Shown here one piece after another: positions 19,845-60,681 of a stretch of 64,000 nucleotides of DNA (the stretch's first letter is position 1; each line of letters begins with the position of its first letter). The notes beneath the pieces are model-generated. The model was not told where the DNA came from and made no database searches. It was given only the letters and a program-made list of their open reading frames with translations. The translations under genes and the position numbers were made by a program. Source of the stretch: a virus (taxonomy: Duplodnaviria > Caudoviricetes); IMG/VR virus record IMGVR_UViG_3300005973_000002; one strand, 5' to 3'.

Positions 19845-20224
19845 TATTCGTCCTCGTCTAAGTCATCGTAGAATGAAACTTCTCTCTTGACAAACCTGAT
19901 AATAGATTCGCCATATGACCCCCTGTTTCCAGCGAGGCCCAACTTAATTGTCTCCTCTTCGCTCTCTTCTACGAGAAGATTAATTTGAAATCCTTTACCT
20001 ATCACAATTTCTTCCCTTTGGTCGAAACACCATACGTTAGCCTTATAAGAGTACGCAATTGTCGGTTTATAACCCAACCAAAAATTCCGGCTACAACTGC
20101 GACAGTAGCCGCTCCAGATGCAAATCCAATCCAGAACATGTTCTACTTATCTTATCGGCCTGATAATATCTTTTAAAAGAATAACCTGAATTACCAAAAA
20201 GCTTTGAGTATGCATCTTTAAGAT

Positions 20225-20776
20225 TCATTGAATTTCTCCGAGTGCTAACTTGAGGATATAACGAGTAATCTCTCGGTCTTCTTCCCTGCGCTTTTGCTGT
20301 GCGTAATCCAATCCAAGTCTGTTGTAGTCCTCTTCATCCAATTTCGAAACCTTTTTGTGATATCTTTTTACCTTGTTTTCAAATGAAGTGTAATGTTCGG
20401 TTGGATTGACCAACGACAAAAATGCTTCATTTTCTCCTCGGCGCCAACGATTTGTTGTGGTGGATGCGGTACAAGATATAACCTTGCAATTAGGCCAGTT
20501 TCTAGCGCCCGCCATGCACAATAAATCTGCACCTCGGGCACTTACTGCCTTTTGCTTATATTCGCTTCCAAGCTCTTTACCTTTGGGAGACACATAAGCT
20601 CGATAAATAAAACTCTGGCTTTCCTCGTATGAATATGGCACATGAATAGCATGCAAGATCCTACTTGCACCAAGAGTCTGGGCGAGTTGATGAATACCAA
20701 TTCCACCACCAGTTACCACAAAAGCAAGTTTGGGACCTTGGTAACGATGTACGAAATCATCAAATACGTCTTGCAC
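20225..20776 (-). CDS. CinA/PncC-like domain protein
   Basis: LAFVVTGGG...LGASRIL...VPYS...AVSARGA...CTASTTTNRWRRGENEAF resembles the CinA-like domain that is usually fused to a cytidylyltransferase-fold domain. Confidence 0.6.
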   Translation of the reverse strand: MQDVFDDFVHRYQGPKLAFVVTGGGIGIHQLAQTLGASRILHAIHVPYSYEESQSFIYRAYVSPKGKELGSEYKQKAVSARGADLLCMAGARNWPNCKVISCTASTTTNRWRRGENEAFLSLVNPTEHYTSFENKVKRYHKKVSKLDEEDYNRLGLDYAQQKRREEDREITRYILKLALGEIQ

Positions 20777-21656
20777 ACTTTTCTCGCAATCTTTCCAGTT
20801 TTTCGTCTAGGCTTCGAAGGTAGTCTAATCCATACGGACCATTTTCTAAACCTTCATAAAGATGCTGTGGTAGGTCGTTTTCAATTTCTTTACAACAAGA
20901 ACCAATGCCCAGCGCCATGGCCGCAATTGAATCTACGTCGCCCGTATAATCAATACACTCTTTAAGGCATTCGCTCAAAGAATTATTTCTCAATACTGAT
21001 GAAATTGCTGCCTTGACACAGGGAATAGCATCACTAGTACAACGTTTTCCTACCGGCCAAAGATCTTTTTTATCGTTGAAAATTCTACTTGAACCACTAC
21101 CAAGTACAAGGAAATCAACCAAATTATTCTTTTTGCCATCATTGTAAAGAAAATAGTGTGTAGCCAAAGCAACTGCTTGCGAGGAAGCAATTGCATCAGG
21201 CGTATCGTGAGTCACTTGAGCTTGCATTCTAGAAAATGTTAAGACTTTATAAACGTTCGGTAGGTATCCGATCGAACACGATCTCATTGCTGCGCCGCAT
21301 TTATTTGACTTCTTCGACAGCTTGGCAAGCAACTCTTTACCAGACTCAACTTGATCTAAGATAGCTTGAAAACGACGTGAATATGCATTTCTTGCATCAC
21401 GTTTATACACCTCCACCCATTTGTTTGCGAGTTTGAGCGGAAGTGTATTTGGATCAAAATGGTCGTTTTCCAAAAGATACTCTGTTACACCAATTGACAT
21501 CTAGGTGTCATCTGTATATGAACCTGCTGGCAAATGTCCTGGAAGATTGTGCGGATAATATGTACTCAAATCATTTTTGATCTGGGTAAGTCGCTCAGGT
21601 TTTGCAAACTCAAAACCTCCTCCATAAGCATCCCCAATTCCGATTTTCACCAACAT
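20760..21656 (-). CDS. ADP-ribosylglycohydrolase (DraG/ARH family) with an in-frame TAG at 21501-21503
   Basis: An SD (AGGAG) precedes ATG 21656. Sequence reads MLVKIGIGDAYGGGFEF...GSYTDDT*MSIG..., then CGAAMR, VTHDTPDAI, GDVDSIAAM. The ORF track shows only the part after the stop. Confidence 0.9.
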
Positions 21657-22269
21657 GCCATTCTCCTACTTGTTACAAATGAGCAAAGTTCAACGAATCG
21701 GACTTTATCTATCTCAACTAGCATGCCTTACCCAATCTTTTTCAAATGCTGCCTTTAAATCTTCATAATCTTTTCGAGGCATAGAAGATTTTACCTTTTG
21801 AAGGATAGCTGCTGCGTGCCTTGATTTCCCAAGGACTTTCTCTTTTGCCGAGAAATAAAGATTTGTAGGAACGATAAATGGAAGCCAAAGTGGAAGCGTG
21901 GGCAATGAGAACAAAGCAACGCCTATGGCTCCCGAGCCCATATTTTCCTTATTAATAATAAGGCTCGAACAAGTGCTGTTTATCCCTTGGCTTTCAATGG
22001 CAATGACATATTGGTTGCCCTTTTTATCTGAAAGATAAAAAGAATCTAAACCAGTTGTCTTGTTTTTCTTGCGTTCAACAAATTTAAGTTTTGGAATCAT
22101 TGGAATGTCGGCCCATACAGCCCAGGCTCCAAAAAGTATAACACCTGATAGAATTGCCGCTTCTTCAAAATTCATACTAACCTACTTTCCTTCGTAGGAC
22201 GACGTCCTACAGCGCACTTTATATAATCTTTCAAGATTTCTTTGGCTTTCTCGGCCTCATAATTTTCTA

Positions 22270-22873: not shown

Positions 22874-24460
22874 CTAACCTCGATATCGATTAATCAGGGA
22901 CTCCACCTCAGTCTGGAGTAAATCACTTCTTCGACCCGCAGAAAATGGCATTTCATCGAATTCACGGATTACACGAGCCTCACAGGTCATGAAATCATCA
23001 GTGAAGCCAGGGCCGAAAGGTTCATCAGAAGTGCCATCGTAATAGGTAACCAATGCATCATCACCAAGTTCGCCAGGTGCCGCAAGAGTGACCCCAGAGG
23101 TAAGGGCAATATCATCACGGAGAACCATGCATTCTGGGAGAGTCTGCTTACCAGGAGAATTGCTCAACTTGATAACTGGACGATCGTCGTTGCCGACAGC
23201 ACAGAGAGCAAATTTGGTGCTCATGTGGTCCCTGTTGATATTGTTACGAAGATGCCCGCCAATACTGAAAATACCACATCGCCATGGAACAAAACCGGCC
23301 GCAAGAGCTGCGTCGGTAATTTGAAGAACACTATCAAACGATTCACCGTTACCAACAATAAATCGAAGCGTGGTAGAAACATGACGTGTGACACCATCAG
23401 CACACAAGTGCTCAGCCATAAGCCCAGCCTGATGTGCCTTTTGTAGAGTACCAATCACCATATCTGTCGAATCGCCTGAATCAGGACGGGCAACAACGGT
23501 TCTTCCAGAGCCATCCGCCTGAGCCCTAAGGGCAAGGGGGATAAGGTGTTTCTCAAGCGCAGCCCAATAATCATAACAATCACCAACCATGCTGAGTAAT
23601 TCGTGATTGTCAGCAGTATCGTACATGTTCTCATAACAGTCGCCTTCGACTGCATAACCCTGCACGATGCGATGCGCAAGAGCTTTCACCGAAGAGCCAA
23701 AAGCAGCTGGTGCGCCATTTTTCCAGTTCTGGAAAGCAGCACGGAACGTGTCCGTACCAAACCAGACATAGTTGTGAACCCGACCCACCAATTCCGATTC
23801 CATTGGAGATGCTGCTGCCCTGTCGCCGAAATCATGAATCATGAGTCGGGCAAAAAACATGCACTCCTCGTCGCTAACCGAGTCAGGCTCAAATTTCCTG
23901 ATGAGATTGTAGGCATACTTCAAAAAGTGTCGAGCGGCGGTCAAACGCTCCGTGGCAGCCCAAACATGCAGCAGGGTGGACTCGAACCAAGGAACCAGCG
24001 GTCCAAACCCAGGCTCTGTAGCCTCCACCCTGAGGAATGGCTCGTGCGGATAAATTACAGAGCCTTCGGGCATTCCAACGACCTTGAGTGGAAGGTAGCC
24101 TCCGTATTCCTTGACGACTCGTCGCCACATTTCCTCAGGAAATTCGAAATCGTCAAAAGATCCGTCGTACTTTGCCTTTCGGCCCTTCAAAAATTCGATA
24201 GTCTCATCGATTTCGGAATTGGTGATCGGATCGTAAAAAAGCAAGTCGCAAAGCTGTTGCAAACCAGCAAAGACAATACGCTGGTCTTCAGGCGAATAAA
24301 ACGGCTCATGTGCATGAGGAAACTTCCTGAAAGTACCGTAATACTTGGAATTTTCCGTAGCCTCTTGGCTCTCGAAGGTAAATCCGTTAATGGTGTAAGC
24401 GTCACTCCAGAGCATTCTGGGTGTTCTATGATATCTTCTTGCGGGTAGTTTCTTTGCCAT
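22874..24460 (-). CDS. nadV: Nicotinamide phosphoribosyltransferase (NAMPT/NadV family)
   Basis: SDAYT, VFAGLQ, GYLPLKVVGMPEGS, FESTLL, HDFGDR, GTDT, DCYD, VARPDSGD, IGGHL, RDHMSTKFA, PGKQTL. Confidence 0.88.
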   Translation of the reverse strand: MAKKLPARRYHRTPRMLWSDAYTINGFTFESQEATENSKYYGTFRKFPHAHEPFYSPEDQRIVFAGLQQLCDLLFYDPITNSEIDETIEFLKGRKAKYDGSFDDFEFPEEMWRRVVKEYGGYLPLKVVGMPEGSVIYPHEPFLRVEATEPGFGPLVPWFESTLLHVWAATERLTAARHFLKYAYNLIRKFEPDSVSDEECMFFARLMIHDFGDRAAASPMESELVGRVHNYVWFGTDTFRAAFQNWKNGAPAAFGSSVKALAHRIVQGYAVEGDCYENMYDTADNHELLSMVGDCYDYWAALEKHLIPLALRAQADGSGRTVVARPDSGDSTDMVIGTLQKAHQAGLMAEHLCADGVTRHVSTTLRFIVGNGESFDSVLQITDAALAAGFVPWRCGIFSIGGHLRNNINRDHMSTKFALCAVGNDDRPVIKLSNSPGKQTLPECMVLRDDIALTSGVTLAAPGELGDDALVTYYDGTSDEPFGPGFTDDFMTCEARVIREFDEMPFSAGRRSDLLQTEVESLINRYRG

Positions 24461-32770: not shown

Positions 32771-33196
32771 CTAAGCAACATATACTAAACCATAATATTT
32801 GCCGACAGTTCTCTTGAACTTCCATTCGCCAAGCAAAACTCCATAAGTGCAGGCAGACTTTTGAAGAGCATGGAGAAAATCGGAATCACGAATATAAAAC
32901 AACTGTTTCGTTTCTGTATGTTCCAGAATTAACTGAGTGGTGGAATTGCAACTAATAAATCGTTCAACTTTGAAAGCGGCTTTGAATGGAGAATTATCTT
33001 TCCAGGTGACATTTAGATTATTATATCTTTTTCTGTTGACATAGTCAAAGTAACTAACGACGGAAACGTTCTTACCGCACGTCCACGGGACTCCCTTTTG
33101 GGTCCATGGGATTTGATAATCTTCACTTTTTTTATTCATTTGTTTCGAGCTGCCCCCTAACCATCCTATCTTTTCGACCTTTATATTTTCGGTCAT
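32771..33196 (-). CDS. Hypothetical protein, W-K-x-N-x-PFKA family (copy 1 of 3)
   Basis: WKDNSPFKAAF...GEWKF is shared with 36627-37019 and 37012-37422. Confidence 0.7.
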   Translation of the reverse strand: MTENIKVEKIGWLGGSSKQMNKKSEDYQIPWTQKGVPWTCGKNVSVVSYFDYVNRKRYNNLNVTWKDNSPFKAAFKVERFISCNSTTQLILEHTETKQLFYIRDSDFLHALQKSACTYGVLLGEWKFKRTVGKYYGLVYVA

Positions 33197-34022
33197 AGGA
33201 TTCTAACTGACGCAAATCCAAATTTGCATCCTTGCTTTTCATTGTTCCACCGCTCAGAAACAATTCAATCATTCTATCCTTTGTAAGAATTTTGGTTGTT
33301 TTGTCATCTTTCGAGGGACCCCATCCAAGCCTTGCCAAGAAATTAAGCATTGCATCAGGATCATATCCACTGTCAATATACAATTGAAATGTTGAAGCTT
33401 GTTCTCTTTTTGAGAGTTTTTTTCCCTGATGACGCAAAAGTCCAACGTGACTATATTTTGGCAAAACGCCGCCAAGGAGGTCATACAACAAAACCTGCTT
33501 TGCTGTATTTGTAATGTGGTCCACGCCTCGAATTATATGATTGATGTCCATTTCAATATCATCAACTACAGAAGCAAAATGATAAGTGGGACTACCGTCA
33601 GATTTGATCAATGTTAGATTATCAAACCCCCGAACATTGTCCGCCCGAATGGGAATGTTGCCAGCAATATCATCAACCCAATAACTTCTGGAAAGAAAAT
33701 CACCAACAAGATTTAAATGAACTCGCTTACCATCTCGAACGGCTTTGCCACTGTCTACCAGAAACGACACGGCAGCATCATAATGCTCCATTCTTTTACT
33801 CTGGTAGTCTAAACCATCCCAATCAAGCCCAAGCCACTCAAGGCTTTTCAAAAATTGGTCAGCCCATCTCTGCTCTGACCTTTCAAGATCGGTGTCATCA
33901 ATCCTAACAAAAAACTTACCACCAGAAGCTCTGGCGGCAAGCCAATTGAAATAAGCAGTTCTCATTGTACCCAAATGAGTAGGGCCTGTAGGTGAAGGTG
34001 CGATTCTAGTAAAAAACTTCAT
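33132..34022 (-). CDS. GluRS/GluQ-RS-like class I catalytic domain lacking the anticodon-binding domain
   Basis: TRIAPSPTGPTHLG (HIGH), RIDDTDLERS, PTYHFASVVDD, HIIRGVDH, KKLSKR (KMSKS), LNFLARLGW. It ends at about 296 aa, where the anticodon domain would begin. Confidence 0.9.
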   Translation of the reverse strand: MKFFTRIAPSPTGPTHLGTMRTAYFNWLAARASGGKFFVRIDDTDLERSEQRWADQFLKSLEWLGLDWDGLDYQSKRMEHYDAAVSFLVDSGKAVRDGKRVHLNLVGDFLSRSYWVDDIAGNIPIRADNVRGFDNLTLIKSDGSPTYHFASVVDDIEMDINHIIRGVDHITNTAKQVLLYDLLGGVLPKYSHVGLLRHQGKKLSKREQASTFQLYIDSGYDPDAMLNFLARLGWGPSKDDKTTKILTKDRMIELFLSGGTMKSKDANLDLRQLESYDRKYKGRKDRMVRGQLETNE

Positions 34023-35308
34023 ATTGCGCCACTTTGTCCAAAAAATGTCCAAGCTACATTTTCCCCGGAGAGTTTTGGTTCGCCTTCGTCGAAGGTATTT
34101 CTAATAGGCAACTCATGAACCTCTGCTACAACAGAGCAATGAATGGCTTGTGCATGATCAATAGCTACATCTAGACTATCACAAGGCCCTTGAAAATTTA
34201 AACCTTCGTAAGTATGCTCAAATACAAGGCAAAATAACATTATACCATCTTCAGATGGCAGAAATCTTCTTCTGTCATCCAGCATTCTCTGTCCTTAAAA
34301 AGGACCGTTGCTCCCAAATAATCATTTGGAAAATATATTTTTCCCCACTTGCCATACTTTTGGCCAACATACTTTGGAGAGTTGCAACTGTTTTTGATGG
34401 CCAAAACATACCATATCATTTTGAAAGATCAACAGGAATGCGAACCTTACGGAGATAGTCAGCAATTTGCTGAATGGCGTGTTCAACAACGCCTTCGGAC
34501 GGATTTGTGATCATATCCATCCTGAAGTGTTCTCCTGGGCCCTGAACACCCCAACTGCAAAGCATGAAAACATCATCGTCTTCCATAACGAATGAAATTC
34601 TACCGTGATTGGACTGCGGAAAATCAAATCCTTGATAGTAGACGATCATCTCTCCCTCGCCAATTTCAACATCACTATATTGCCTTGTTTCAGCAACACA
34701 TGAATATGTCCAAGAAAGACCTTGGCGGGCAAGATGTTTACATGCGATACCAATATATTCACATGTTTTATTATGATTCACGTTTTTCTCCAAACAACTG
34801 ATCATAATAAACAAACCCAATGAGTTCTTGTTTATCCTTTTCAAATTTGCCGCAATCCTGTTCCCATTTTTCCTTTAGCTCAATGTAATCTTCGTAAGCT
34901 TTATCTGATCGACCAGTAGGACCATAATGCAAATTTGGGACTTTTCCTTCATTATTATCTTTAAGTTTTTTATTTATAATACCTCTGCCGTTGAAGGGGA
35001 AATAATCTGTATGCAGCCCCATGTGCCCTTGCCATAAAGCATGTGTAGTAATTAAGCGAATTTTATCATCGTCTGTCAGTTTATAGACGTTGTATTTACG
35101 ATACCAGCCAAAATCATATTCTGTATCAATATCATCAGGGTCTTCGGCTACTGATACAAATTCTTCAAGCAAATCAAAATAGCATATTTCATTTTCATGT
35201 AACAAAACTCCACTAAGTGGTCCATCCCAATAATCCAAATGCCAGAGAATTTGCACGTTTTCAAGTTGTTTCATTTTTTTTGCTTTCCAATTTGTTTCAT
35301 CTTTTTAG

Positions 35309-35383
35309 CGAGACCTGTGGGATTTGAACCCACATCACTCCGGGTTAAAGCCGGCCGCATTACCAATTTTCTGCCAAGGTCCC
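35309..35383 (-). tRNA. tRNA with anticodon TTA (ochre-suppressor type; Gln/Glu-like loop)
   Basis: GGGACCT/AGGTCTC acceptor, G73, anticodon stem CCGG/CCGG, loop CT-TTA-AC (anticodon 35346-35348), T arm GTGGG-TTCAAAT-CCCAC. Confidence 0.85.
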
Positions 35384-35387
35384 ATTT

Positions 35388-35637
35388 GTGGCCGCCCCAG
35401 GAGTCGAACCTGGCTGTCCCACGACTGACGACCAAACTGTCCTATCTGCTTTGACGGGTCCTTCCCCCGTTTCTATGGCCACTTGAACTAACAACATTTC
35501 ATAATCTCATGGAAGCCACACACTTCCAGCAGGAATTGAACCTGCGCCGGGAACACTTGCCACTGTCGCCGAGCCAACTACTAGTTGTTATGTACGTCAT
35601 ATCGCCGTGCGGCAAAAACAGATAGGAACAGAACTTG
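35388..35637 (-). ncRNA. Unidentified structured RNA with two T-loop hairpins (YrlA/tRNA-like modules)
   Basis: A long-range helix of about 20 bp (35613-35637 with 35433-35453); GCAGG-TTCAATT-CCTGC stacked on TGGAAGT/GCTTCCA; CCAGG-TTCGACT-CCTGG; GTGGCC/GGCCAC. Confidence 0.6.
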
Positions 35638-35641
35638 TATG

Positions 35642-36626: not shown

Positions 36627-37019
36627 TTAGGCTAAGCAAACACTTAGGTATCGTCCTGATTTACGGAAAACCCATTCACCCACAAACACACCAGCAATAG
36701 CCGGCAGCGTTTTAAGTAGTTGAACAAAGTCTTCTTCCTTCATGACATATTCATAACCGTTTTCGGTATCATGAAGAACTGCTTGACAACTCGTACTCTG
36801 GTTTGAACTGTAAAGATGCGAAAGACTGAGCCCTGCCTTAAACGGCTTGTTTTCTTTCCATTCAATTGGTTCGGATTTGCGAATGTAGCCATACCCTCCA
36901 ATATTTGGATGCGCCATGTCGCAAGTTTCAGAATCTTTTTTGGGGCATTGACGTGGAACACATCCATGCTTTCCTACCACGTGAGGAACCAAAAAATTTT
37001 TATCGTCTTTTTCAGTCAT
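36627..37019 (-). CDS. Hypothetical protein, W-K-x-N-x-PFKA family (copy 2)
   Basis: EPIEWKENKPFKAGL...GEWVF; the start ATG overlaps the upstream TGA (ATGACTGA). Confidence 0.75.
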   Translation of the reverse strand: MTEKDDKNFLVPHVVGKHGCVPRQCPKKDSETCDMAHPNIGGYGYIRKSEPIEWKENKPFKAGLSLSHLYSSNQSTSCQAVLHDTENGYEYVMKEEDFVQLLKTLPAIAGVFVGEWVFRKSGRYLSVCLA

Positions 37020-37422
37020 TGTTAAATTCATTAGCCTTTTCGGCAGGAACTATTGAAAGAAAGCCACCATAACTATGAAAAACCCATTCGCCAAGACAAA
37101 CACCCATAATCCACGTTGTTTTATCCATCATTTCATTGAAAAGATCTTCGCCAACATAATAAGTGGCCTCTGTTTCCGTATTTCTCATCAAGAACTGAAC
37201 TGACGAACGTTTGTTTACAACCCTATCAAATCTCAGAGCGGCTTTGAACGGCTTATTTTTCCTCCACTCAATTGGCTCGCCATCGGCTCGTTTGTTGATG
37301 GTCCAATCGTATCTTCCAGGCCAATGTGTTTATTTTCGCTTGGGGCGTCGCCAAGGAACAGAACCATCTGGGTAAAATGGAATTTCATCCTCATAAGGAT
37401 TTTTGAGCTTTCTATTTGTCAT
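37012..37422 (-). CDS. Hypothetical protein, W-K-x-N-x-PFKA family (copy 3), with an in-frame TAA at 37330-37332
   Basis: MTNRK...RRPKRK*THWPG...EPIEWRKNKPFKAALRF...GEWVFH; 137 codons, matching the length of its paralogs. Not in the ORF track. Confidence 0.85.
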
Positions 37423-37810
37423 CACTATTCTTTTTCAGTATTAAGTTTAGCGATAAGTGGATCATTAGGGCCAAGATATTCAACCAATTTATCTGGCCTT
37501 GCAAGCAGCCATTGATCACTCGTGATTGGCTTTCCTTCACATTCTGGTGGAAAAATTTCTATTTGTGGACAGTTGCCCCAATCTACATCAGCTTCGGAAA
37601 TATATCCCCATCCATATTCCGTGCCCTCCCAACCAGGATCAAAAAATATTTTTGTGGAATCTTCTACGTTAACAACACCCCATTCATGTTGGCCAAAGTA
37701 TACTTGGACATGCAATTCATCTTCATGCTTGTGAATTGGACCATGTTCATGCCAGTTTGCTTTGGGGTGTGCCCTAAGCAAATCTTCTTATGATTTATAA
37801 ACCTTTACTT

Positions 37811-38383
37811 TCATTTTTTTCGCTTGTTGTTTTCTTTCAGCATGTTGATAAAGGTTAGCCCTTGTTCCCTCGCATCATCAATTGCCACATGAGTATGAGG
37901 CATATTTTTAGGAAACCACCGTTTTGGCCAAAAGCGTTTGCTTGTTTTCTTGTAACCTGTTTGTCTCATTGCCATCACATAAGTTCGTACGTCTACACAA
38001 GAATGACTAAAAAGAGAATGACCAGTAAAATGCTTCATATACCAGTACATAAAAAGAAAATCAAAGCCGGATGGCATACAAACCATCACAGGTTTATATG
38101 TGCTTCCACATAATCTTTTTACCCATTTATCAAATGCCTTAAAGGCATCTTTAGGTTTCTGAAGATTTCTCCTGTGAGCATTCCACGCATCTGGAAATTG
38201 CTTCCACCATTCCATGGTGGAAGCATCTGGCTGGGCACCGGGAAGCAACTCTAGGTTTGCTTCAAAAAAATCTAATTCTTCCCCATCTTCGGTAAAAGCA
38301 ACAACACCAAAGCTGAGCAATGAATTGATTGCAGGCAATGGACCATCGGTTTCAATGTCCGTGCTAAAATATAATTCTTTCAT
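37811..38383 (-). CDS. DEDDh 3'-5' exo(ribo)nuclease (Rv2179c-like)
   Basis: STDIETDG, SGFDFLF, VDVRTY, HTHVAIDDAREQ. Confidence 0.85.
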   Translation of the reverse strand: MKELYFSTDIETDGPLPAINSLLSFGVVAFTEDGEELDFFEANLELLPGAQPDASTMEWWKQFPDAWNAHRRNLQKPKDAFKAFDKWVKRLCGSTYKPVMVCMPSGFDFLFMYWYMKHFTGHSLFSHSCVDVRTYVMAMRQTGYKKTSKRFWPKRWFPKNMPHTHVAIDDAREQGLTFINMLKENNKRKK

Positions 38384-40818: not shown

Positions 40819-40829
40819 CTATTATTTAT

Positions 40830-41181
40830 TGGACCCGATCGGAATTGAACCGATGTCCTCAAGATCGCCTAAAAAAACTTCTACGTTACCTAGTTTGATT
40901 TTCAGATTACCGGTCCGAGGTATCAGACAACCAACCGGGTTCTTTCATTTGAAATCTTGATCAGACAGCCAATAGAAATCTAACTCTAGTCTAATCCAGT
41001 CCTAATAACGACGCCTTATAGAATGCAAGGACACTCAAGCTATAAGACGGCTCTCATCAAGCAGCGAGAGCAAGAGGTGCATTGTCTGCATTTATAATCG
41101 TTTATTGGATTTAAGTGGTTCTAAACACCCACCGTAACGCCATTTTTTCTTCTTACCCCAAGTCGAAACCAGTACGGGCCC
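40830..41181 (-). ncRNA. ssrA: tmRNA (352 nt), tag peptide ADNAPLALAA
   Basis: 5' GGGCCCGTACTGGTTTCGAC; acceptor with G3.U70; ATAAAT then GCA GAC AAT GCA CCT CTT GCT CTC GCT GCT TGA (41057-41089); 3' GGAC-ATCGG-TTCAATT-CCGAT-CGGGTCC-A. Confidence 0.95.
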
Positions 41182-42105: not shown

Positions 42106-45100
42106 ACTCTAAAAAAATCTTGTTCGCACTTGAATGACTGCCAATACACTCTATCTGCAATAAGCAACATGTAATGCATGACATTGGCAAATGTATAATT
42201 CTGTTTTATAAAGTCACTTTCCACAAAATCAAATGTAATGCCTGGCTCCATGTAAACAACCATGCCGATAACTGGCTCTAGATCCCGTTCATACCATATT
42301 GACTTTGTTAAAGTCCAAGCCAAATCTATATCAGCTTTATTAGCTTGACACCCTGTAAGGATTTCTCGAAAATCATCTGGATGTGTTGTCCACACGGACA
42401 TCACATTGCGTGCTCGAAACACCTGTCCTATTTTTATTGAAGTCATTTGTCAATAATGCTGGAGAGGGGCTTCCAACAATAAAGAAACTCTATTTCGTCC
42501 AGGTATTCAAGCCAAACTACATGATGATTTAATAACGCTTGCACGCAAATATTAGCAGAATAATGAGGCAATTGACAATAATCTAAAACCAACATATTAG
42601 TTTTAGCAGGAAAATTGATAACAAACTTCCTATCGTCTGCTTCCATTACAACAAATTCATATGTTTTTTGTTTGTATTCATCGGGTCGGAAAACAATACC
42701 AGAGCCAGCTTTTACCGACTGATAAACTCCTCCTTGTTTTAACGAATCATTTTCCAACATTTATTGAAATCTTTCTTACTGAGAATTTGCCAAACTACTT
42801 TAGCACCTAGGAGCCAAATATAAACCCCTGCTCCACCAATATCAAGCAATTCTATCAACAGAACAATGGTTTCTGGTTCTATAAGAGCATGATCAACGTG
42901 TGTGATAGTTCTTTCATATCTTCCCCAGGGATCTGTCTTCATGGCTAAAGAACGACCTATTGCCTTGAAAAGCATCCCTGGTTTTAAACTTGTCACTCAT
43001 ATAAAGAGTAACAAAATATAAAATGTTCTATTTGTTGTCGTTGTCAATGCTTTGCCCTTAGTGTGTCACATTGCAAAATATACATAAAACATTGTTGCTT
43101 TATAACATATGTGAATATCAACCTTTCCACATAGTAGACCATGTAACCAATTTCATACAAATTTATTAGTTTATATTTTATACAGACTAAACTATACATA
43201 AAGCATGGCGAACTCACCTTTAAAAAAGTACGGCTACATCTGGCACAACGAAAATGGGTTTTGGACTACAAAAGTAGACGAAAAATATGAAGCTACAGCA
43301 TGGGAGTTTGGTGACAGATTTCAGTGCGTGGTTCAGGTAACCAATTTAAATGATCCAAAAAAAGAAAAAGTGAGCCTTGGATTGGAAATGAACGACAGCC
43401 TAGATAAGGCAATGAAACACTGTCTTGACTTCATTGAAACCCATCGAAACACTACACCGCCCAACGCCGAAGAAATGATTTTGAAAACACACAAAGACTG
43501 GCCTCACTTATACAAGTATAGACATCAATTATTAAATCAAATCTTTTTTGTTGGTGGAAATGATTATGATTGGTTGGATGGTAGAATTGTTAGCAATTCC
43601 CCTGAGGAAGACCATAAAACCTGGACTATGAAGCAGGAACCCATCTTTGAAGAAGAAACTAGTAAGGAACTTATTTCTTTAGTTGAAGATTTACTGAACT
43701 CCAATCCAGAAAATGAAGAAATAAAGGACTTGGCTAATAACATTTTATGTGCTGCGAAATCACAACAAGAACACATAAAAGAACAACAAACTCTAAAAAA
43801 GAAAGTTCCCTTTAAAGAAGGAAATTCATCAAGTCCAATTAATTTTTCTAACATCTCTGAATATTCGAAAATTTGGACTGTTCCAACTGATATAACAGAT
43901 GATTGGCTTGCAATTTGCGCCGAGGCTATCCTATTATTAAAGCAACGAAATTCAAACGAAAACAATGAAGGTCAAGCAGATTTACTGATCAAGCATTATG
44001 TCGCCCTGTTCGGTGAACGATTCATTCACCTTCTTAAATAATTTAAGTTTTGTGGGCAAGTAGTTTTCATAACTTTCCCATATTTCTTGTGCTATACTAG
44101 CAGACACATACCAATCTGCGCTGTCACATCGTGGAATGACATATTTTTGATGCTCCGGCATGTCTACGACTATACTACCTTTTATAAGGCGCTCTTCCCA
44201 TAAAAATTTAAACGTAATCTCAAAATACCATTGTTCGCCATGTAATGGTCTTGACAAAAATGAGTTTATGTTAGGAATTCTTCTCGAAAGTGTAGACATT
44301 CTAAAAGGCGAAACTTCCCAGTTTAAAAACAAGAGCACCGCATCCATTGAAGGAATGGTAAACAAATTCCATCTGACATGGTGCTCACTAACGGGATCGT
44401 AATTAATCCTGTATAACTTTCCAATCTCAAGCATTCATCAAACCTGTATTGACACCATCAGGATCAAGTTCAAATTCAAATCCAGTGTCAACCTTTTGGG
44501 CATAATAAACTTGCTCTCTCCAGAGAAAGGATATATTTTCTTCGTACGAAATGTTCATCTCGTAGTACAAAAGAAGAATAAATTCGCCACGTGGAATTTT
44601 TACTTTTGATGACAACCCATCAACATGAGCTTCAATTCTGGTTCTGGTTTTCCAGAGAGCCCCTCGTCTATAACATGGATTATCATCCGCCATCGCCTTC
44701 GTCCGAGAAATCATTTAATAATCTTGACTTCAACTTTTTAATAGTCTCGCCCTTTTTGAAAACAATGGCTACCATTTCTTCTTTGTGAAGGAACCGAAGA
44801 AGATGACTTCTCATATATGGATCATAAACAACATCTACAAATAGAGTAGGCTCACCCGCAGGAACGGTATAATGTTGAAAATAATGACCACGTGGCACAG
44901 CTACCACAACACCACGTTCATCCACACCAACATTATATTTGGCAAAATACATTGGCTCTTTAAACACGAACAAGGTGCCCGAACCAATGTTGTGGTCTTT
45001 TTCCATACACTGCATGATCATTTGGCAACGCTTGATATGTTTGTGCTTAATAGCCATCTATTCCTTCTCTTTAACTACACGAACATTACGCATAAAATCT

Positions 45101-54980: not shown

Positions 54981-55733
54981 CTAGGCACTTGTGCTGAATT
55001 GTTTGAGTTCATTTCTTCTCTCCATTTTGTTTAAAATATAAGGTGTCCAACCTCTATATGTGTTACGTTTATTATTTGCCACTTGATTCATCTTTGAAAG
55101 ATGTAAGTTATTTTCTCTGCAAAATTTCGATAAATTTGTAATTGAAACTATTTCTCCATCAGGAGAAACAATCTTATAAGATTTTTGATTTGATTTGATT
55201 GCTGCCAAGTTGGTAACTTTAGATGGTCTTTTGCCCCTATTTGCATTTTTTATTTTTTTTACATGTTCTTTTGATAGACTTCTTCCGGATAGTGCTTTAG
55301 ATATATTGTTTTTATGTTGTTCTGATAGTAATCGACCTTTGAGTGAAGAAGAAATTTTTCTTTTAGTTTCCTCTGATACAACAGTTTTTCTTGAATTAAA
55401 ACTTCCTTCACGTGAAATGGCTTTTTGTCGTAAATTATAGCATTTTTTTCCGGAATCAAAAAATTTATCTAAATATCGCTGTTCTATTTCCAATCTCTTG
55501 TTCAAATCATTCACTTCTTGAAGAACTTCGAAAATAAAAAATTCTGATCCACATTTAGAAAAATCAGATTGAAGAAATCGATTGCCATGCTTCCCCAAAA
55601 GAAGAGCATGTTTATGTTTATAGGCTCTTGTTTTAAAAGATTTACAAGAACCATAATAAACTCTATGGTTCTTACGGTTAAAAATTCTATAAACCCCACC
55701 TTTATTGGAACAACCGTTATATATTAACTTCAT
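54981..55733 (-). mobile_element. Free-standing GIY-YIG homing endonuclease with NUMOD3 repeats
   Basis: GVYRI...VYYGS...R...H...EQRYLD...YN, followed by SEETKRKIS, SEQHKNNIS and SKEHVKKI. Confidence 0.87.
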
Positions 55734-55769: not shown

Positions 55770-56210
55770 CTATTCAATATTTATCCGCTTTAATTCAGCT
55801 CTGCGCTCCATGAGTAAAATTCCTAACCAATTCTTACCCTGACCTGTCTTATTGTCTACTCCCCAAAATTGATCATGCCACGTATTTCCCTCAATCAAAA
55901 TGGCTGGTTCGGTAGCAATTAGCATTTCGGCAAAAATCGATCCTTCGGCAAACTTAAGTCTAAGTCCCTCTCTCATCACATGTATTTTTACAGATTCCCA
56001 ATCCTTGCGCAAATCTAGAGATTTTCCAGCTCGCTTTGCAGCTCCTGGGGATTTAAGAGAGGCAATGCGCTTTCTTTCGCTGTGTGAGTTTGTCTTCATT
56101 GCTTGATAAAAGTGCTCATTTGTTGCATAGACAATTCCATCATGAATGAAGGGGCTTTCATAGAAATTTGAAAGAAAGCTAAAGTCATCAGTAAAACTGT
56201 CGATTTTCAT
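55770..56210 (-). CDS. NADAR (YbiA-like) family hydrolase
   Basis: FLSNFY, EHFYQAMK, AKRAG, DWESVK, IEGNTWHDQFWG, GKNWLGILLM. Confidence 0.93.
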   Translation of the reverse strand: MKIDSFTDDFSFLSNFYESPFIHDGIVYATNEHFYQAMKTNSHSERKRIASLKSPGAAKRAGKSLDLRKDWESVKIHVMREGLRLKFAEGSIFAEMLIATEPAILIEGNTWHDQFWGVDNKTGQGKNWLGILLMERRAELKRINIE

Positions 56211-56806: not shown

Positions 56807-56926
56807 CTCCAGAGGAGGGATTCGAACCCCCGACTAATCAGCTATCTTTGAAACCATCGGATTCGCATTGCAACAAGCTTTATCCGATTCCCACAACCGA
56901 TCGCTCTACCATTGAGCTACTCTAGA
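56807..56926 (-). tRNA. tRNA-Asn-type body with a 48-nt insertion in the anticodon loop
   Basis: TCTAGAG/CTCTGGA, G73, GCTC/GAGC D arm, ATCGG/CTGAT stem, GGGGG-TTCGAAT-CCCTC. The loop is 55 nt instead of 7. Confidence 0.82.
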
Positions 56927-59471: not shown

Positions 59472-59552
59472 ACAAAGAACTCGGATTCGAACCGAGAATA
59501 CCTTTACAGGCGGCGCAAGTTGCGAAGTGTATACCATTTCCACCATTCTTTG
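59472..59552 (-). tRNA. Type II tRNA-like RNA with a collapsed anticodon arm
   Basis: Perfect CAAAGAA/TTCTTTG acceptor, GGTGGAAATGGTATACAC D region, GCCT-GTAA-AGGT variable arm, CTCGG-TTCGAAT-CCGAG. The anticodon arm is only CGCA-ACT-TGCG. Confidence 0.7.
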
Positions 59553-60609
59553 GAGAGGCAAACAAAGTCTAGGTCCAGACCAACTTACCTTTCTTTCCAT
59601 TGTGAAAAAGAGTCAAGCCTCCTTGGTCTCTAAAGCACCCATAGGACTGTCCACGAGAAGTCATAACAGCTTCGAAATGGATAAGGTACAATCCATCTAG
59701 TACAAAAACCTCCCGCCCTTCTAGGGCGGCATCAAGCAATTGTTCAGCGAGACTTATGTCATACATTGCTTTTGTCGTTACCATATTCATTTTTTCGAGC
59801 TTTCATCATTGTTTCGGTTTTAATTTGGGCAATAACCGTATCCAACTCATCTGCAAGTTTGCGTAGCTTTTCTGGTGTTATTTCCACTCCACCCAGGTGG
59901 AACTTGGCTGCGTTGTGGTATGAATTCAATTCCAACTGCTGGGTGGTATTTAATCCCCTAAAAACACCATCGCCATTATCCCAAAAGTCAGTAACCAACG
60001 AAAAAGCTTCGCCGCCATTGTCTTTTTCATTAAAGGTAAATACATGACGAGCAAGATGTTTTTTATCAGAACTCATTTATTCATCCTTATCCTTGTAAAT
60101 TCGATTTTTTATTGCAAATTGCGGGGTTAGCCAAAATCTTGAGTCTGGCTTTGTTGCTATTTTACTTTCATTTGGATGGTAAGCTCGGCCATGCAATGGT
60201 TGAAAGCAGGGTTTTTCACAATACACACAAGTTGTATTTCCGAAACTTTTTCCAATAGCCTTAGAACATAACTTTGTCACAAATTTTCCTTTGCATGGGT
60301 TTCAAAGTATTCAATTACATGCCCGGTAACAACATTTCCATTTTCAGGGTTGATAGCCAAAGAAACGAGGTCTTCCATGTATTGCTCCGGAATGTAAAAT
60401 TGAAAAATCGTATATGATTTCTTATTTTCTAGTTGATATGACCGAATTTCTTCTAGAAGATCATTGATATTTTTTCTAGGAACAGCAAACCAAATTTTGG
60501 TTTGATCAAATTCAACTATCAATTGGTCAGATGGATCAATCGCATAAGGAAATTCAAAATCTTCACTAAATGTTGCAGACCAAAACTTTTGCATAATATT
60601 TCTCCCGAG

Positions 60610-60681
60610 TGGGTTGCCTGGGATTCAAACCCAGAACCAACATTTTAAGAGACTGTTGCACTACCATTGTAGTGACCACCC
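60610..60681 (-). pseudogene. Degenerate tRNA-Lys(CTT)
   Basis: Loop CT-CTT-AA; T-loop TTTGAAT (C56 lost); C at position 8; mismatches in the acceptor and anticodon stems. Confidence 0.65.

Follow-up and report, generated by a model that had tools for sequence, protein, structure and literature searches.

An ADP-ribosylglycohydrolase (ARH) gene in a very large phage is interrupted at codon 52 by an in-frame TAG that is real, fixed in this phage and absent from its relatives. The reading that we favor, with modest confidence, is that this is a decaying and at most leaky gene, reflecting a recent lineage-specific knock-down within an NAD+/ADP-ribose module that is itself being dismantled. The DNA analyzed here (the window, a stretch of 64,000 nucleotides) is part of a phage genome of about 461 kb known from hypersaline-lake metagenome assemblies. 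Its genes lie nearly all on the minus strand, and genetic code table 11 gives dense coding.

The interrupted ARH frame

The frame runs from 21656 to 20760 on the minus strand and, with the TAG read through, comprises 298 codons. Its match to the Pfam family PF03747 (ADP_ribosyl_GH) spans the break, covering residues 7-251 and profile positions 8-274 of 287 with the TAG entered as X (E=1.3e-35; 123.9 bits against a gathering cutoff of 26.2 bits), and a single ARH domain extending across the stop is far beyond chance. The TAG (21503..21501, minus strand) takes the place of a conserved CAG (Gln). It immediately follows GSYTDDT and adjoins ATG-TCA-ATT (M-S-I; ATG at 21500) on its other side, and the residue encoded right after it, Met53, is invariant in the ARH family. 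The frame, the Pfam domain and the motifs on both sides thus confirmed the original prediction of an ARH gene split by an amber codon straight after its TDDT motif.

The domain is the one found in human ARH3, Rhodospirillum DraG, Serratia Tri1 and Methanocaldococcus MJ1187 (PF03747), and with these proteins the phage frame shares the catalytic Glu in GxxFE and the binuclear metal motifs, TDDT in the N-terminal part and GDxD(S/T) in the C-terminal part. Identity to the solved ARH structures is 20-30%. Alignment of the active site to ARH3 (6g1p) and MJ1187 (1t5j) places the catalytic E16, T48-D49-D50-T51 and D240-V-D242-S243 in the phage protein; E16, TDDT and GDVDS line up with EFE, YTDDT and GDTDT of the two structures. 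Because the TAG falls between both metal motifs, the active site is cut in two, a break between the halves of the metal site that sets this frame apart from the family members of known structure.

The ARH family is characterized by a single polypeptide, whereas table 11 gives products of 51 and 246 amino acids here. The 51-codon N-terminal piece, which together with its AGGAG Shine-Dalgarno sequence occupies 21504..21667 (minus strand), carries Glu16 and T48/D49/D50/T51; the AGGAG lies at 21667..21663, 6 nt ahead of the ATG at 21656. The C-terminal piece is a 246-codon ORF from the ATG at 21500 to a TGA at 20760 (20760..21500, minus strand) without a Shine-Dalgarno sequence of its own. It contains D240/D242/S243 without the N-terminal half of the active site, and it was called as a separate gene in all assemblies. 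Judging from the residues that it lacks (E16, D49 and D50), this ORF should be inactive alone, in agreement with the original prediction, and it is not to be labeled in annotations as an active ADP-ribosylglycohydrolase. The accompanying statement that the residue after TDDT is commonly Gln or Glu was loosely right: the position holds Q in this clade and E in MJ1187, but A in ARH3, and it is not a ligand.

The TAG is the sole lesion of the frame, which is of full length and shows no frameshift, no second stop and no indel relative to a 298-aa sister sequence. All catalytic and metal residues are retained. This clean frame, together with the preserved catalytic residues, counts against decay.

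A protein look-up placed the split gene on 17 contigs, with the same 897-nt sequence and the TAG. Six of these loci, taken from ENA, JGI and Logan assemblies, have the TAG and match the window at 100% identity along as much as 6.7 kb. In the contigs of three hypersaline-lake runs from 2017, no other letter occurs at word depths of 19, 61 and about 5-6. The data sets listed as containing the phage include none from RNA. A sequencing or assembly mistake, with C as the true base, could be argued from the consensus nature of the contigs and from the possibility that the runs, and with them several data sets, come from one sampling campaign. However, the TAG recurs in assemblies of several runs by different assemblers, and its 17 contigs, at depths of 19-61x, show no competing letter, which makes such a mistake extremely improbable. 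Support of this kind excludes assembly error and is still compatible with a minor CAG subpopulation.

Codon 52 in relatives and selection on the module

The best 120 full-length homologs listed are 275-316 aa long and share 87-41% identity with the phage protein. The comparison of orthologs that had been suggested with the original prediction showed CAG at codon 52 in all seven relative contigs (L007-L013; 87, 75 and 70% protein identity), in each case between flanking codons that are the same or nearly the same, and Q in column 52 in 117 of the 118 other aligned homologs, the remaining one having E. Since all relatives have CAG and the column is almost uniformly Q, the TAG is a lineage-specific nonsense allele. 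It is a single C>T transition (CAG>TAG) and not a conserved recoding site, which bears out the proposed nonsense change at a conserved Gln. Programmed read-through would be accompanied by conservation of the stop among orthologs, and here the stop is not conserved.

Searches for a near-identical CAG allele returned none: there was no full-length protein above 87% identity among the matches listed, none in a search of shorter proteins and none in a pattern search of viral_contigs that allowed Y at the first base. When a gene from the middle of the window was used to scan metagenomes, a single distant 7-kb locus was found. A strain from a 2022 microbial mat (about 98.7% identity), whose contigs end short of codon 52, differs in the C-terminal part of ARH by four synonymous changes and one conservative change (V162I). 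This pattern looks like purifying selection and would count against decay.

Substitutions along the branch leading to the window were compared with those of its sister. In ARH, derived non-synonymous changes were distributed 14:2 (window:sister) versus 10:16 for synonymous changes (Fisher p=0.003), and other choices of outgroups preserved the non-synonymous bias (13:4 and 11:2). With three closer relatives as outgroups, the window branch had 13 derived amino acid changes and the sister branch 4. Among the 13, six affect columns that are 81-100% conserved (G91A, P128S, E4K, A13G, P88A and A220S); G91 is G in 118 of 118 homologs, and the P128 column is 99% P. Maximum-likelihood branch lengths for the window and the sister were 0.128 and 0.028 for amino acids, 0.061 and 0.026 for codon positions 1+2, and 0.14 and 0.51 for codon position 3. 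The ratio of non-synonymous to synonymous change is consequently about 8-10 times higher on the window branch than on the sister branch; pairwise dN/dS in ARH is 0.03-0.10. The same bias was found in the conserved 183-aa neighbor that overlaps the terminal TGA of ARH (20225..20776, minus strand), with non-synonymous counts of 19:2 or 23:1 versus synonymous counts of 10:7 or 12:9.

The synonymous counts are balanced, which speaks against a simple long branch. It is important to consider that the sister contigs are about 2 kb long, so that the rate comparison covers module genes only and is compatible with a genome-wide acceleration of protein change, and that the TAG-bearing contigs are all identical, so that there is no divergence after the TAG to measure. 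Within that scope, the substitution patterns point to relaxed selection on ARH and its module in this lineage. The original prediction had named other signs of decay in relatives as evidence against it; signs of decay do exist, but in this genome and not in the relatives. A pseudogene is expected to combine a disabling lesion with independent signs of relaxed selection, and both are present here. The multiple lesions that would also be expected are not found, as the frame has a single stop only. As a rough estimate, neutrality over about 40% of the window branch would predict about two more stops (P about 0.1).

The genes around ARH have changed as well. In the relatives, NAMPT, ARH, a 180-aa gene and an NMNAT-like gene stand in one run. 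Its head is intact in the window, where a NAMPT-family nicotinamide phosphoribosyltransferase (22874..24460, minus strand) is syntenic with those of two relatives (L032 and L034). The gene that follows the 180-aa gene in the relatives (L008/L009, L010, L012, L032 and L034) encodes a cytidylyltransferase-like protein of 207-223 aa with weak matches to NMN/NaMN adenylyltransferases, and the copy of the closest relative, ended by the contig edge, has the motif GSFNPLHQTH. Here the NMNAT-like gene is a stub, a 45-codon ORF (20091..20228, minus strand) of which only the first 18 codons or so are homologous, and tblastn found no match to the gene in the 64-kb window beyond this stub. About 1.7 kb, corresponding to the NMNAT-like gene and a 355-aa gene of L012 and L034, appears to have been deleted in this phage.

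NARP2 is an NAD+ reconstitution pathway of Vibrio phage KVP40 that consists of Nampt and Nmnat (bioRxiv 10.1101/2024.02.11.579819). Like it, the relatives' run encodes NAMPT and an NMNAT-like protein. In this phage, with the NMNAT-like gene reduced to a stub and ARH stopped, the pathway looks incomplete within the window: of the two enzymes that define NARP2, the 64 kb encode NAMPT only. ARH is not a described component of NARP2.

Elsewhere in the window, the product of a second ADP-ribose-related gene (55770-56210, minus strand) has a NADAR domain (PF08719, 7e-27), and this family has been linked to the reversal of ADP-ribosylation. A GIY-YIG/NUMOD3 homing endonuclease gene (54981-55733, minus strand) comes next, in the same frame.

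The split itself could be functional if termination and restart gave 51-aa and 246-aa polypeptides that form an active hydrolase non-covalently. The stop and the ATG are adjacent (TAGATG), a geometry that permits termination-reinitiation in bacteria, and both pieces are intact and conserved. However, a point mutation within the metal-binding loop made the cut, neither piece has gained a docking tail, and the arrangement exists in no relative. There is no split ARH among the best 120 homologs listed, a search for shorter forms found nothing, and the signal of relaxed constraint also speaks against such an enzyme. We consider a two-piece hydrolase highly doubtful.

A tRNA with anticodon UUA and other gained stops

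The claim that the phage has a tRNA with anticodon UUA was borne out. This ochre-type suppressor (35308..35383, minus strand) was recognized by both ARAGORN and Rfam (54.4 bits), and it has a 5-nt variable loop and G at the discriminator position. Orthologs in three related phages, located via the neighboring truncated glutamyl-tRNA synthetase (GluRS) gene, have an invariant anticodon and compensatory stem changes; each relative has one or two such genes in the same Pth2-GluRS neighborhood. The well-formed and conserved suppressor tRNA that a read-through system requires is thus present. One relative contig, SRR32696344_24036, contains two tRNA(UUA) genes (L036) together with an intact ARH gene with CAG (L034), from which it follows that the tRNA is older than the ARH stop. 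Nor is ARH a conserved client of tRNA(UUA).

The clade has two tRNA(UUA) sequence types, and the window has only the first of them. The first type has the unusual D-arm of the window's copy, also seen in L038a, and the second has a standard AGCTCAGT-GGCAGAGC D-arm (L036b, L037 and L038b). Two relatives have two tRNA(UUA) genes each, and in L038 there is one of each type.

The amino acid identity of tRNA(UUA) was addressed by similarity. A comparison with E. coli tRNAs gave no match, BLAST against phage records gave weak and mixed matches (Val, Arg, Lys and Asp), five huge-phage records contained no close homolog, and similarity to 48 phage tRNAs was uninformative, with no isotype standing out. 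A class II origin (Leu, Ser or Tyr) is excluded by the 5-nt variable loop. The truncated GluRS (33132-34052, minus strand; TIGR00464, 263 bits) is a 306-aa catalytic domain without the anticodon-binding domain, its match ending at profile position 315 of 470, and it may be the enzyme that charges the suppressor tRNA. It lies 1.3 kb from tRNA(UUA), and more than 4300 similar proteins of about 290 aa exist in metagenomes.

Several other small RNA features were observed in the window. Two tRNA-like mini-helices (35388-35640, minus strand), each a T-arm/acceptor structure that lacks the anticodon arm, are located between the suppressor tRNA and Pth2 and have a weak mascRNA-like match (E=0.019). 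A tmRNA is encoded at 40827-41181 (minus strand; Rfam 127 bits, tag ADNAPLALAA), and a distant huge phage (L030) also has one. ARAGORN reported a tRNA-Ser (anticodon ACT) at 59472-59552 (minus strand) that is not in Rfam at the gathering score, and Rfam matched tRNAs at 56807-56926 (120 nt) and 60610-60681 that were missed by ARAGORN.

Stop codons in the window are used in an ordinary manner. Its 133 genes end in TGA (56), TAA (50) and TAG (27), in proportions that follow the background frequencies of off-frame trinucleotides even though a UAA-reading tRNA is present. Back-up stops were no more frequent after genes ending in TAA or TAG than after those ending in TGA. Since the TAA and TAG stops are ordinary and back-up stops are not in excess, efficient suppression during infection appears unlikely.

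Genome-wide recoding was rejected, as coding under table 11 is dense, all three stops are used, and treating TAG as a sense codon lengthens few ORFs. Eight other pairs of ORFs in the same frame, separated by TAG at 45060, 55772, 5273 and 3385 or by TAA at 60079, 11277, 3710 and 49769, were also rejected as split genes because no Pfam or PHROGs domain spans any of these stops. The stop at 55772 separates the NADAR gene from the GIY-YIG endonuclease gene, and that at 45060 separates two tandem 124-aa genes.

Comparison with relatives, feasible over about 27 kb, revealed at least three genes with gained in-frame stops, ARH included. One (37012..37422, minus strand), a paralog of 36627..37031, has TAA at codon 31 (37332..37330), where the L038 ortholog has GAA (Glu) and L036 also encodes Glu. 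Another (37425..37814, minus strand) has TAA at codon 9 (37790..37788). Its ATG at 37814 is ATGA-coupled to an upstream Rv2179c-like exonuclease gene, as in L038, whose ortholog has sense codons throughout; ORF finders start this gene at a TTG two codons past the TAA. Three gained stops exceed the expectation for a normal phage and fit either nonsense alleles buffered by a suppressor or newly gated genes. Both TAA genes have the cognate codon of tRNA(UUA), adjoin it and lie 16 kb from ARH, while the ARH stop is a UAG at a distance of 14 kb from the tRNA. The two other lineage-specific TAA genes indicate that the lineage tolerates or acquires stops, which counts against plain decay of ARH.

The codon-anticodon pairing matters for any role of the tRNA at ARH. 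The cognate codon of tRNA(UUA) is UAA, which the UAG of ARH does not match, and reading of UAG would require U:G wobble, possible in principle with a modified U34. Classical E. coli ochre suppressors (supB, supC and supG; anticodon UUA) read UAA and also UAG, and the A that follows the TAG is said to be a favorable context for suppression.

A functional conditional gene would result if tRNA(UUA) read UAG by wobble at a useful rate, with ARH as a new read-through client. Consistent with this are the conservation, sound fold and compensatory changes of the tRNA across relatives, the truncated GluRS and Pth2 beside it, and the two further genes with lineage-specific in-frame TAA. The ARH frame, its Shine-Dalgarno sequence and its active-site residues are also intact, and as the residue after TDDT is variable and not a ligand, Gln, Glu or Lys should be tolerated there. 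On the contrary, the stop is missing from all relatives, including those that carry tRNA(UUA), and its codon is UAG, in contrast to the cognate UAA of the other gained stops. Furthermore, the non-synonymous rate is raised at invariant positions, the NMNAT-like partner is lost, and the TAA and TAG stops of the phage show no adaptation to strong suppression. In E. coli, amber suppression by an engineered tRNAPyl(UUA) did not rise above background (PMC3592851), which likewise speaks against reading of UAG. Altogether, we judge a functional conditional gene to be rather unlikely.

The original prediction had offered a conditional de-ADP-ribosylase and a read-through target of the UUA tRNA. As a designed switch, neither is supported: the stop is in no relative, even one with two tRNA(UUA) genes and an intact ARH, UAG is not the cognate codon, and the module is under apparently relaxed selection. 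A broader proposal is that the ARH TAG is one of several new stop "gates", together with the TAA codons at 37790 and 37332, and is read by wobble, so that the counter-defense enzyme would be made only when read-through is on. We hold this to be unlikely. If true, it would mean that new genes can come under the control of a suppressor tRNA in nature with no recoding of the genome as a whole.

Proposed course of translation and known systems

The decaying, at most leaky gene that we favor starts from a CAG>TAG nonsense allele that is fixed in an otherwise intact ARH gene of an NAD+/ADP-ribose counter-defense module, and from it we infer the following course. Ribosomes starting at the ATG at 21656, led by the Shine-Dalgarno sequence, would terminate at the UAG after 51 codons, and termination would separate Glu16 and Asp49/Asp50 from Asp240/Asp242, with probable loss of function. 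Some ribosomes would probably restart at the adjacent AUG and produce the 246-aa fragment, which should not be catalytic alone. The 298-aa enzyme would arise only via read-through, by a minority of ribosomes. The older tRNA(UUA) of the phage may supply a little full-length enzyme through U:G wobble, and the residue inserted at position 52 would presumably be one tolerated in the wider family, given A and E in distant members.

Megaphage G encodes a tRNA Sup:UUA (PMC12484599). Like megaphage G and the E. coli supB, supC and supG strains, this phage combines a UUA tRNA with the standard code and still uses TAA and TAG to end genes. In contrast to the E. coli ochre suppressors, its tRNA(UUA) is a conserved natural gene and not a laboratory mutant. 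Stop-recoded phages have suppressor tRNAs and reassign TAG to Gln or TGA to Trp (bioRxiv 10.1101/2021.08.26.457843), and the phage studied here shares with them a phage-encoded suppressor tRNA and in-frame stops within genes. Unlike in those phages, the stops here are isolated and lineage specific, TAG still terminates 27 of 133 genes, and the ARH stop is non-cognate. As the stop is not conserved and codon and anticodon do not match, we do not class the ARH gene as a case of programmed recoding. We see it as a further instance of a situation already known, a nonsense allele in a suppressor-bearing genome.

Considered by itself, this nonsense allele of an accessory phage gene would be unremarkable, and its value comes from its context: a conserved ochre-type tRNA with an unexplained role, as in megaphage G, and three gained stops in the same lineage. 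This combination gives a concrete test of whether suppressor tRNAs buffer nonsense mutations, which then drift to fixation, or gate expression. In addition, an NAD+/ADP-ribose counter-defense module (NAMPT, ARH and the NMNAT-like gene) appears to have been caught while being dismantled, which bears on the speed at which phages lose anti-defense functions.
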